Position numbers and translations under genes: made by a program. 64,000 nucleotides of DNA from a virus: the IMG/VR virus record IMGVR_UViG_3300029705_002769, one strand, 5' to 3'. Position 1 is the first letter of the stretch, and every line of letters begins with the position of its first letter. Of the stretch, positions 60,985 through 61,780 are shown piece after piece. The notes under the pieces were generated by a model. That model worked only from the letters and a program-made list of their open reading frames with translations. It was not told where the DNA came from and did not search any database.

Positions 60985-61197
60985 GGAGAGAAGATGAGGA
61001 TAGATAAAATTGTAAAAACTGGGAAAATTCTGGAAGTGGGGTGGCCCGATCGGGCCTAGACTACTCTACTCATTTATCCGTCCTCGTGTCCGTAATTAAG
61101 TTCAATATATTATGCCGCATATGCCAGCCCGTCCACTTGCTATTCTTTACTCTTGCTCCTCTTGATCTATTACCGATCGGTAAAAATATGCCCCACC

Positions 61198-61230
61198 GTA
61201 TTATATCATATATTTGTTTATTTGTCAAAT
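61198..61230 (-). promoter_or_regulatory. Class-II promoter (TTGACA-N17-TATAAT)
   Basis: rc: TTGACAaataaacaaatatatgaTATAAT. Confidence 0.6.
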
Positions 61231-61280
61231 CTCCTTCCTCTTGTTGCCGACTTTCCGGTCGGCCTATATCCTTCTACTTT

Positions 61281-61312
61281 TATTATATCATAAAAAAATT
61301 ATGTTGTCAATT
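61281..61312 (-). promoter_or_regulatory. Class-II promoter
   Basis: rc: TTGACAacataatttttttatgaTATAAT. Confidence 0.6.
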
Positions 61313-61340
61313 TCCCGGTCGGCGGAGGTGCCTTTTTTAA

Positions 61341-61371
61341 ATATTATATCATATTTAATTCAATTTGTCAA
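61341..61371 (-). promoter_or_regulatory. Class-II promoter
   Basis: rc: TTGACAaattgaattaaatatgaTATAAT. Confidence 0.6.
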
Positions 61372-61650
61372 ATTCCGCAGCATATGCATGTTCCAGAGAA
61401 CGCGCGGGGTATGTTCGATCTACGCTGAGGGGCAGAGAGAATTGATTTGTGAGGCGCTGGAGGAATCGCTTTCACCGCGCACGAGCGCATATGATAGCCG
61501 ATCGGTTATCCGATCGGCGGGGCCCGACCGGGGTTTCGGGATTCAAGGTAATTAGTTGCATATAGTTGCATTCAAGAGAAAAATTTGCATATACAGGTCC
61601 GATCGGGAAATTCGGTCCGGATCGCCCGCGACCGGCCCGCTCAACTCCCC

Positions 61651-61686
61651 TCTATTATTATACCACAGCCCGCCGCATTTGTCAAT
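61651..61686 (-). promoter_or_regulatory. Class-II promoter
   Basis: rc: TTGACAaatgcggcgggctgtggTATAAT. Confidence 0.6.
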
Positions 61687-61780
61687 AGGCAAAATCAACA
61701 AAAATTATGCGATTTTTCTAGTAAAACCGCACAAAACCGGACAAAAACAGCAAAAAATGGGCGATTTCTCGCCCATTTTG

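Follow-up and report, generated by a model that had tools for sequence, protein, structure and literature searches.

A conserved, non-coding region of tandem promoters, short palindromes and a single-copy core motif in a clade of large uncultured phages

In phage T7, the three strong host-polymerase promoters A1, A2 and A3 stand in tandem upstream of gene 0.3 (ocr). In the anti-CRISPR promoter/Aca systems, strong early promoters are accompanied by palindromic operators which are bound by a small helix-turn-helix (HTH) repressor. Promoters are also part of transcript-primed replication origins such as the primary origin of T7, comprising the tandem promoters phi1.1A/B and an AT-rich tract, or oriF and oriG of T4. 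Clustered strong sigma-A early promoters with small genes are found in the host-takeover module of Bacillus phage SPO1. Finally, the repeat regions in the long terminal repeat (LTR) of T5 are better conserved than the surrounding open reading frames (ORFs) (Davison, bioRxiv 10.1101/866236). Here, we describe a region located at about 61.0-61.7 kb of a 64 kb stretch of viral DNA (IMG/VR virus record IMGVR_UViG_3300029705_002769), in the following called the hub; "the window" denotes the whole stretch. The hub holds near-ideal promoters, copies of an 8-mer palindrome (CCGATCGG, or CCGRYCGG in a looser form) and a hairpin-plus-core motif. It is best read as a single-copy cis-regulatory region which closes the downstream end of an island of early genes.

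In function, the hub appears to resemble most closely the T7 A1-A3 bank and the early promoters with palindromic operators. As in T7, three strong tandem promoters about 60-130 nt apart lie in gene-free DNA and feed a small acidic early protein. In T7, a known genome end lies within a few hundred bp of the array, and operator-like palindromes are missing, whereas many of the promoters in the hub are followed by a CCGRYCGG 8-mer and a hairpin-plus-core lies upstream; moreover, profile searches of PDB and PHROGs detected no similarity between the acidic protein and Ocr. With the Aca systems the hub shares strong early promoters, a short palindrome at or after the promoter, a small gene downstream whose function is probably directed at the host, and HTH genes nearby. 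It differs from them in having no Aca-like gene in the target operon, in the position of its sites at about +12 to +20 instead of over the -35/-10 elements, and in combining a multi-promoter array with a promoter-independent core.

In architecture and position, the hub seems closest to the untranslated repeat region which closes the pre-early block of T5. This region, Repeat Region 3 with the injection stop signal (iss), has a length of about 1.2 kb and is, like the hub, conserved, untranslated and packed with repeats, inverted repeats as well as palindromes (Davison, bioRxiv 10.1101/866236). It closes a block of about 10 kb of small pre-early genes with very strong host-type promoters, and both regions are conserved at least as well as the adjoining small genes. 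The T5 iss is, however, defined by its mapped position in the terminal repeat and by paired DnaA boxes, whereas the hub has no DnaA boxes, contains unrelated motifs and includes tandem promoters. We do not assign the hub to the T7, T5, Aca or SPO1 kind. Among the formal definitions tested, that of a promoter applies, and those of a terminator, an Rfam family, an iteron origin, a DnaA-box iss and a partition centromere do not.

Related loci (designated by L numbers) were collected in two ways. Protein-anchored searches gave L001, L003-L008, L043 and L045, and an exact scan for the core pattern CCGATCGG-N6-ATATG-NN-AATTTT(T) yielded 7 viral loci, 26 metagenome loci (17 clearly related) and 2 contigs binned in metagenome-assembled genomes (MAGs). 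The scan-found loci are selected for the core by construction, whereas the protein-anchored ones are not; among the latter, L003 and L045 carry the same core, L001 and L043 a shortened one with a CATATG/TATATG motif within a few nt after CCGATCGG, and L004-L007 a variant core. The relatives share an order of elements that starts with an early gene and its terminator, often followed by a class II promoter (defined below), and continues with the hairpin, the core, and CATATGC/G, CCGATCGG and TCCCGAAA. Then follow 2-4 tandem promoters and a second conserved element with its tail, the gene for an acidic protein being located before or after this second element. Judged from these comparisons, the hub is a conserved, single-copy, non-coding module across a clade of uncultured phages of 135-185 kb. 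Between the window and L045, identity per 100 nt is 72-92% in the hub and 52-100% in the flanking genes, so that the hub is about equally conserved. The plus-strand ORFs 61041-61340 and 61214-61555 are broken in L045 (82% DNA identity) by indels of 1, 11 and 33 nt, and from these frameshifts it follows that the gene-free stretch of the hub (about 0.75 kb) lacks coding capacity. The direction of transcription is the minus strand, and in this direction the elements of the hub and its edges are as follows.

61754-61779, minus strand: hairpin and T-run, the intrinsic terminator of the upstream 157-aa gene (61781-62254), forming the upstream edge of the hub.
61657-61685, minus strand: class II promoter TTGACAAATGCGGCGGGCTGTGGTATAAT facing the hairpin and core (exact search).
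61613-61639, minus strand: GC-rich hairpin CGGGCCGG-loop-CCGGACCG, ending 6 nt ahead of the core 8-mer.
61579-61606, minus strand: core CCGATCGG-N6-ATATGCAAATTTTT, single-copy in the window and 100% identical in L045.
61380-61578, minus strand: motif field with a second TATATGCAAC...TTGAAT repeat, TCCCGAAAC (61532-61540), CCGGTCGG (61524-61531), tandem CCGATCGG (61510-61517 and 61498-61505), CATATGC (61485-61491) and GCATATGC (61381-61388).
61200-61371, minus strand: three tandem perfect promoters (61343-61371, 61282-61310 and 61200-61228) with spacings of 61 and 82 nt.
61173-61322, minus strand: operator-like 8-mers, one per tandem promoter, namely CCGACCGG at 61315-61322 and 61255-61262 and CCGATCGG at 61173-61180.
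61036-61170, minus strand: purine-rich stretch ending in the second conserved element GTCTAGGCCCGATCGGGCCACCCCAC (61036-61061).
60984-61035, minus strand: C-rich, G-poor, T-rich tail after the second element, read from the sequence.
60258-60983, minus strand: class I promoter (60955-60983) and acidic protein gene (60258-60863, 201 aa).

Two promoter families exist, with a changeover at about 61 kb, because the exact class II sites and the class I cassette differ. Class II was defined by the pattern TTGACA-N14-TGnTATAAT, that is, a -35 hexamer TTGACA, a 17-bp spacer with TG at -15/-14 and a -10 hexamer TATAAT. An exact search of the window gave nine matches, all of them on the minus strand at 61.2-63.8 kb, and none in 100 dinucleotide shuffles.

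61200-61228, 61282-61310, 61343-61371, 61657-61685 and 62280-62308, minus strand: perfect promoters matching this pattern (exact search).
62486-62514, 63089-63117, 63241-63269 and 63774-63802, minus strand: remaining class II perfect promoters (exact search).

The first-pass annotation had proposed such a second family of at least nine copies from about 61.1 kb onward, distinct from class I, and this count bears it out. It had also seen four of these promoters packed into 500 bp with no convincing ORF; four of the nine indeed lie inside 486 bp without a conserved ORF, in the hub. All nine conform to the extended -10 definition for sigma-70/sigma-A and are predicted promoters. Class II sites are marked by GC-rich spacers, a TGTG-type extended -10 and a leader of their own, AAnnAnnTCrAAAGG. 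Allowing two mismatches adds about 30 sites at 3.8-61.0 kb, which belong to a different cassette, class I, with the sequence TTGAwwTTTnnnAAAAAwwwTGATATAAT followed by the conserved transcribed leader ATATATGTAAGGTTGAGAGAG. These roughly 30 class I sites extend from 3886 to 60983 on the minus strand, and the cassette including the leader is about 50 nt long; the leader probably supplies a uniform 5′ end with a ribosome-binding region, or else a regulatory site.

The three tandem promoters starting at 61371, 61310 and 61228 are hybrids which combine a perfect class II -35 hexamer with an AT-rich spacer of class I and the class I -10 TGATATAAT, and they carry the transcribed leader of neither family. 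They are the sole cluster of at least two promoters within 130 nt in the window. At the equivalent place, tandem arrays of 2-4 promoters, 60-95 nt apart, were found in L045, L012, L014, L018, L019, L024, L025, L030, L039, L001 and L043.

The second ingredient of the hub is the 8-mer. Six copies of CCGATCGG were found in the window against 0.39 expected, a number which was reached in 0 of 100 shuffles, and five of them lie in the hub within 560 bp.

59483, 61046, 61173, 61498, 61510 and 61599: copies of CCGATCGG (exact search).

The looser form CCGRYCGG occurs 14 times in the window (1.08 expected) and adds the hub sites 61255, 61315 and 61524. Successive 8-mers in the hub are separated by 75, 14, 12, 183, 60, 82 and 127 nt and so have no regular period. 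Across hubs, CCGATCGG is enriched about 100-fold; the 20 related hubs contain 54 copies, of which only about 20 are owed to the scan that found the loci. A literature search on CCGATCGG returned nothing relevant. In the 54 copies, the flanks are self-complementary at chance level, with 0 extra pairs in 36, 1 in 14 and at least 2 in 4. This count rules out extended palindromes as hairpin stems, and because the flanks pair no better than chance, the functional unit is the 8-mer, which behaves like a short palindromic site, with the longer palindromes of the window being incidental. The GC-rich palindromes listed in the first-pass annotation have to be read in this light: GGCCCGATCGGGCC (61043-61056), TTACCGATCGGTAA (61170-61183) and the tandem pair are present, with extended flanks that stay at chance level, and the spacer given as N5 in GCCGAC-N5-GTCGGC is in fact N6 (61246-61263). 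In the comparison with relatives, which it had named as a check, the 8-mer recurs in related hubs and the extended palindromes do not rise above chance flanks. As a side observation, the hubs of L010 and L015 contain palindromes of 16-18 bp, TTGTGAAAAATTTCACAA (TGTGA-N6-TCACA, CRP/FNR-like), besides CCGATCGG; these are positioned at about +95 to +125, with further copies downstream of the core.

The position of the 8-mers relative to the promoters is constrained. In the window, each operator-like 8-mer begins 19-20 nt past the -10 hexamer of its own tandem promoter. Among 29 listed distances from the window, L045, L012, L015, L019, L024/L034, L030 and L039, some sites being repeated owing to promoter matches one base apart, 20 place the start of CCGRYCGG 18-21 nt past the -10 hexamer of a tandem promoter; the gene-proximal tandem promoter has no 8-mer. 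A short palindrome repeated at a near-constant distance from promoters was thus found in at least 8 lineages, and such a site is a putative operator. In addition, whole lineages replace it: in L012, CCAATCGG takes the place of the 8-mer everywhere but in the core, with 5-6 copies in one orientation only, and in L004-L007 the TCTAGA-type palindromes GGTCTAGACC and CCGAATCTAG are found instead. Such lineage-wide replacement fits co-evolution with a cognate protein. In L001, one CCGATCGG lies within the spacer of a class II promoter (6026-6054).

On these grounds we tentatively favour an operator-gated bank of early promoters, placed at the early/middle boundary, as the explanation of the hub, although we would not call it probable. 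The host RNA polymerase with sigma-A/sigma-70 would fire from the tandem near-ideal promoters upon infection and transcribe the acidic protein gene just downstream. A sequence-specific DNA-binding protein, putatively from among the numerous winged-helix paralogues which the early island encodes, would then fill the CCGATCGG/CCGACCGG 8-mers, which sit at about +12 to +20 of each tandem promoter and also in the second element and in the core composite site (hairpin, 5-6 nt, CCGATCGG, N6, ATATGCAAATTTTT). Its occupancy would gate the bank, most simply by shut-off after the initial burst, and would mark the early/middle boundary. In this scheme the binding of a protein to the 8-mer and its identity are inferred, and the direction of regulation, the temporal class of both promoter families and the role of the hairpin are presumed likewise. 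The operator reading is ranked first because of the narrow range of promoter-to-8-mer spacings, because the site is a short palindrome which whole lineages replace, and because of the copy in the L001 promoter spacer together with the winged-helix paralogues in the adjoining island.

Two proteins had been proposed as binders, 58937-59482 and 62636-63043. The former is an unlikely reader of CCGATCGG, because the lineage-specific iterons belonging to it, TGTACAAAAATTTCTGA, do not occur in the hub. The family of 62636-63043 is a candidate for the binder of the hub motifs. Its members have about 120-140 aa and a C-terminal winged helix, and the early island of each relative contains 2-3 of them, for example the paralogues 3301-3645 and 3-110 in L002; in L035, L031, L020 and L040, a paralogue is located directly upstream of the hub. 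A repressor or partition-protein binding centre had been one of three functions suggested for the hub. The repressor version is the best-supported of them through the enrichment, spacing and replacement of the 8-mer, and the partition version found no support: scans with Pfam and PHROG of the neighbours and of 29 larger window proteins contained no member of the ParA, ParB or TubZ families.

Several observations weigh against an operator-gated bank. In L014, L018, L025, L001 and L043, tandem promoters occur without the 8-mer and with another motif, GCTTTTCCGCACTTTTT, instead. The fixed orientation of CCAATCGG in L012 is not predicted by a symmetric dimer site, and the purine-rich stretch and the AT-rich repeat tail are not explained by operators. 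The hairpin and core, as the most conserved piece of the hub, are not tied to a promoter, and a core found a single time in each genome of about 170 kb would be less typical of an operator than of an origin, a packaging site or a genome boundary.

The evidence on the core is as follows. Its pattern occurs once per contig on contigs of 165.7, 176.4 and 185.5 kb. The upstream arrangement of gene plus terminator is likewise found in L012, L010, L015 and L043. A homologue of promoter 61685 precedes the hairpin in L014, L016, L018, L019, L031, L037, L039 and L004; in L045, a deletion of 33 nt takes out its -10 hexamer while the hairpin and core are 100% identical, and the promoter is missing in L012, L023, L025, L029 and L024; about half of the lineages lack it or have it deleted. 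Because promoter 61685 is lost or absent while the hairpin and core persist, the core does not depend on any dedicated promoter. A hairpin ending 3-6 nt ahead of the 8-mer was seen in per-sequence folds of most of 21 lineages, with stems that vary between them (CGGGCCG/CGGCCCG, GCCGGTCGC/GCGACCGGT, CCGGCCGTGC/GCACGGCCGG, CCCGAT/ATCGGG and CGGGTCGC/GCGACCCG), and where the window has a G.A mismatch, L045 has a G-C pair. The support for the hairpin consists of such single-sequence folds, since RNAalifold on a MAFFT alignment of 17 cores gave no consensus helix, the stems and loops varying in length. In the motif field, TCCCGAAA and CATATGC/G occur at similar offsets in L012, L014, L018, L019, L024, L025, L029 and L004; the tandem CCGATCGG pair is not preserved in L045.

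The second element is a further conserved piece. The stretch 61036-61120 is nearly identical in L045, and an element of the form ..ACGGnGACG..TCTAGG-CCGATCGG-GCCACCACAC is present in L014, L018, L019, L024, L025, L029, L030 and L035; in L004, it carries the GGTCTAGACC palindrome. It precedes the acidic-protein gene in the window and in L012 and follows this gene in other lineages. The tails of relatives are longer and either G-poor or made of AT-rich repeats, such as three tandem repeats of 21 bp in L014 and TTTTTTACAA repeats in L016. The acidic protein family adjoins the hub in every lineage checked, with isoelectric points of 4.0-5.2; its gene is inverted in L001 and L043 and driven directly by the tandem promoters in most other relatives. 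No relative of the protein was found in Pfam, PHROG or PDB, including profile searches of PDB and PHROGs.

An action at the level of RNA has to be considered for both the promoters and the core. The promoters could be an array of short non-coding RNAs or produce 5′ leaders with an A-run and CCGAUCGG at about +12 to +20, and the hairpin and core could act as a signal in the RNA, for instance for attenuation or processive antitermination, or as a decoy. The near-constant distance from the transcription start suits a leader motif as well as an operator, and CCAATCGG in L012 is sense-oriented throughout. The structure of the hairpin is kept with differing stems; its energies are alike on both strands overall, with a modest lean toward the sense strand, and several lineages are more stable there through G.U pairs, as in L018 (-18.8 versus -8.5 kcal/mol). 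A short U-containing stretch follows the hairpin (AAUUUC to UUUUU), which is AAUUUC in the window and contains only 2-5 U, often following A or G, in relatives; the terminator scan made no call here, and the core hairpin does not qualify as an intrinsic terminator. In L001 and L043, the last tandem promoter leads to a discrete predicted RNA of about 80 nt with a strong terminator (z = -4.3 and -6.6, values driven mostly by the terminator hairpin), and in the window the promoters 63269 and 63390, neither of them followed by an ORF, are predicted to produce RNAs of about 105 and 75 nt.

These points are opposed by the results for the hub itself. Rfam 15 gave no match in the hub at the gathering score, and at a permissive threshold the matches stayed below it and all fell on the terminator at 61.70-61.83 kb. 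For the two long transcripts predicted from the hub, folding is no better than for shuffled sequences (z = -1.66 and +0.58), by which a highly structured hub RNA is ruled out. No terminators were found between the tandem promoters of the window, no consensus helix was obtained for the core, and the promoter needed for a core RNA has been deleted from L045 and is missing from many lineages whose core is intact. We therefore regard an RNA-level element as quite unlikely, and the sRNA (small RNA) array suggested in the first-pass annotation is weakened by the same lack of a family match, structure and terminators and by the loss of promoter 61685 in L045. Apart from the hub, the units behind 63269 (a perfect class II promoter) and 63390 (two mismatches) are possible small RNAs. 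They are predicted on the minus strand at 63128-63236 and 63280-63356 and end in an A/T-rich stretch right before the next promoter, with fold z-scores of -1.5 and -2.7; the 63269 RNA has GGTGCGCAAC in common with the equivalent unit in L043 (15103-15185) and in L001.

A single-copy, conserved, non-coding module may also be a lytic origin of replication. In a transcript-primed origin, the purine-rich RNA from the tandem promoters would form an R-loop in an AT-rich tract and prime the leading strand, while CCGATCGG and CATATGC would bind an initiator or accessory protein. The transcript after the tandem promoters is indeed purine-rich and no more folded than shuffles (the z of +0.58 given above), AT-rich tandem repeats lie past the second element in L014 and L016, and the window encodes a phage RNase H (568-1164) and a gyrase B (1952-3856). 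As in the origins of T7 and T4, tandem promoters without an immediate ORF are followed by a strand-biased or AT-rich region. Those origins, however, use phage-specific or middle promoters and have no grammar of palindromic 8-mers, whereas in most relatives of the hub a protein gene stands right behind the promoters and is simply driven by them.

Furthermore, a better origin candidate is located next door. To the left of the hub follow, in order, the acidic protein gene, a bidirectional terminator and a short plus-strand block which holds 58937-59482. The predicted model of this protein (predicted local distance difference test, pLDDT, 78) has a generic tandem winged-helix fold; a fold search of PDB was not discriminating, with Stn1, ScpB and an iteron Rep protein, the latter only at rank 28. 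The protein matches PHROG 3396 and, weakly, replication-initiator PHROGs; 12 of 22 family members match a replication-initiator PHROG, which counts in favour of a transcript-primed origin. Its gene is flanked by direct repeats TGTACAAAAATTTCTGA with a period of 21-22 bp, at 58784, 58805, 58836, 59504 and 59525.

58784-58841 and 59504-59530 (about 58.78-58.84 and 59.50-59.62 kb): iteron arrays, with a hairpin at about 59563-59621.

Behind the iterons come an AT-rich tract and a long hairpin, the loop of which, CGCTTCGCTyCG, is conserved. The module recurs in L043 (9854-9907 and 10545-10635, with up to five downstream copies) and L001 (636-705), and in L012 and L018 the iteron sequence changes along with the winged-helix protein. 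We consider the module at 58.8-59.6 kb a candidate for a classical iteron origin or for an autoregulated centromere, judging from its sequence. A distance of 1.5 kb separates this signature from the hub, where its iterons do not occur; the hub 8-mers are irregular instead of following a period of about 20-22 bp next to an AT-rich tract. The DnaA box TTATCCACA with at most 1 mismatch occurs 21 times in the window against 19 expected, and none of these lies at 59.85-62.15 kb. No change of sign in GC skew was found at the hub beyond the effect of gene orientation, and the narrow promoter-to-8-mer spacing is not predicted by an origin. A transcript-primed origin in the hub is thus rather unlikely in our view. 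With respect to the replication or packaging origin proposed earlier, the iteron array is the better place for an origin, and the hub is the less likely one.

The position of the hub leads to another explanation, in which it is a boundary in the genome architecture, that is, the inner end of a terminal repeat or of the first-entering segment, with an injection stop or packaging recognition site comparable to the T5 iss. A near-identical contig (L002, L056 and L059) extends the window sequence by 19 kb rightward. There, a class II island of about 10-12 kb with about 20 promoters, all directed at the hub, consists of roughly 20 small genes, nearly every one with its own consensus extended -10 promoter, and a class I operon precedes it. 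Like the SPO1 module, this island, as distinct from the hub itself, is 10-12 kb of about 20 small genes with their own sigma-A extended -10 promoters in one direction; the SPO1 module differs by its mapped terminal redundancy, and no protein similarity was found. The island begins at a tight back-to-back promoter pair (L059 1-9200, about 74-83 kb on the window scale), and beyond it, on the other strand, genes for a sigma factor, an endonuclease VII-like protein, a large-terminase-like protein and a portal protein are located. The genes of this opposite-strand operon have no class I or II promoter of their own, save the one at the back-to-back pair.

As a boundary, the hub would separate first-step-transfer or terminal-repeat DNA, represented by the early island, from the next segment; its entry or expression would be the task of the tandem promoters, as it is for A1-A3 in T7. 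About 0.75-1.2 kb of conserved, untranslated DNA, rich in repeats and palindromes, does end an island of about 10-12 kb with strong promoters and small genes, an architecture which matches the description of the T5 LTR repeat regions (Davison, bioRxiv 10.1101/866236). The core occurs only once, and its structured hairpin keeps a near-constant distance from the conserved sequence; the large terminase and portal genes are located about 12-17 kb beyond the island, and two contigs end by the second element: L019 stops right after ..CCGATCGGCCACCAC, and the 137-kb contig of L007 stops about 60 nt short of the equivalent of the second element. On the other hand, the same-species contigs L005, L006 and L007 start at different places, most contigs run uninterrupted across the hub, and other contigs end in promoter or iteron repeats, which break assemblies anyway. 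At the far end of the island, the back-to-back promoters are accompanied by no hub-like motif, matching repeat or palindrome in the 19 kb walked past the window. A scan of viral contigs for a terminal-repeat partner of the second element found the pattern once only, in a single contig of 37.6 kb, and DnaA boxes, which have been proposed to define the T5 iss, are lacking at the hub. Overall, a boundary of this kind is a doubtful explanation.

A related proposal concerns the conserved pieces alone. The hairpin/CCGATCGG-N6-ATATGCAAATTTTT core and the second CCGATCGG element might form a single-copy cis signal for a genome-level step instead of for gene regulation, and we hold this to be improbable; candidates for such a step are the arrest of DNA entry at the end of the island, a long-terminal-repeat boundary or the priming of replication. 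The operator-gated bank is retained as the favoured reading of the hub.

Conserved non-coding control regions are almost never annotated in the genomes of uncultured phages, yet they hold the logic of the infection programme. The hub offers a searchable motif grammar consisting of two promoter cassettes, an 8-mer mostly 18-21 nt past the tandem -10 hexamers and a single-copy hairpin-plus-core, and throughout a clade of large phages without a cultured member it would be a marker of the early/middle boundary. If the 8-mer is an operator, it provides a handle on a switch protein and on a strongly expressed acidic early protein, possibly directed against the host. If the core serves as a signal for entry, packaging or replication, the genome architecture is fixed by it. 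A genome-level signal would be common to a clade of gut or rumen phages of 135-185 kb that has not been described before and whose late genes also seem to read TAG as a sense codon; a phage lineage unrelated to T5 would then have a comparable infection programme in two steps, with a sequence grammar of its own. In addition, the compact near-ideal sigma-A promoters could serve as genetic parts.

Database searches with the hub region by blastn against 50,697 phage records gave no match, and protein searches with two genes neighbouring the hub returned one distant uncultured match, with nothing else and no cultured relative. A scan of GTDB genomes for the core found two phage contigs only, binned in unrelated MAGs (Treponema and Bacteroidales), which allow no host assignment. 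The exact sequence of one window protein is present on contigs of up to 173.8 kb.

The window itself derives from a large phage with nearly all genes on the minus strand. Besides gyrase B and RNase H, it encodes a formate-tetrahydrofolate ligase, FolD and RNA-repair enzymes. Unusual cargo genes are located at 9357-17861, 18154-20625 and 6979-8436 and include an RNA-repair-like set (RNA ligase, an AAA_33 kinase-like protein, RlaP and several metallophosphoesterases), a major-vault-protein-like gene (823 aa) and a flotillin/SPFH protein. ARAGORN called 33 tRNA genes at 24.9-41.8 kb, and Rfam added four tRNA matches, one at 26981-27045 and three at 43.0-43.7 kb. The latter three (43001-43115, 43410-43527 and 43534-43659, minus strand) have lengths of 115-126 nt, are uncalled by ARAGORN and may be tRNA genes carrying insertions or introns. 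A tRNA of 91 nt with the anticodon CUA at 31843-31933 on the minus strand is labelled 'Pyl' by ARAGORN. When TAG is read as sense, late-operon fragments beyond the window merge on the minus strand of L059 (3166-4774 and 8078-9149) into a portal-like frame of 536 codons with 7 in-frame TAG and a sigma-factor frame of 357 codons with 2 in-frame TAG, which suggests that late genes are recoded at TAG.

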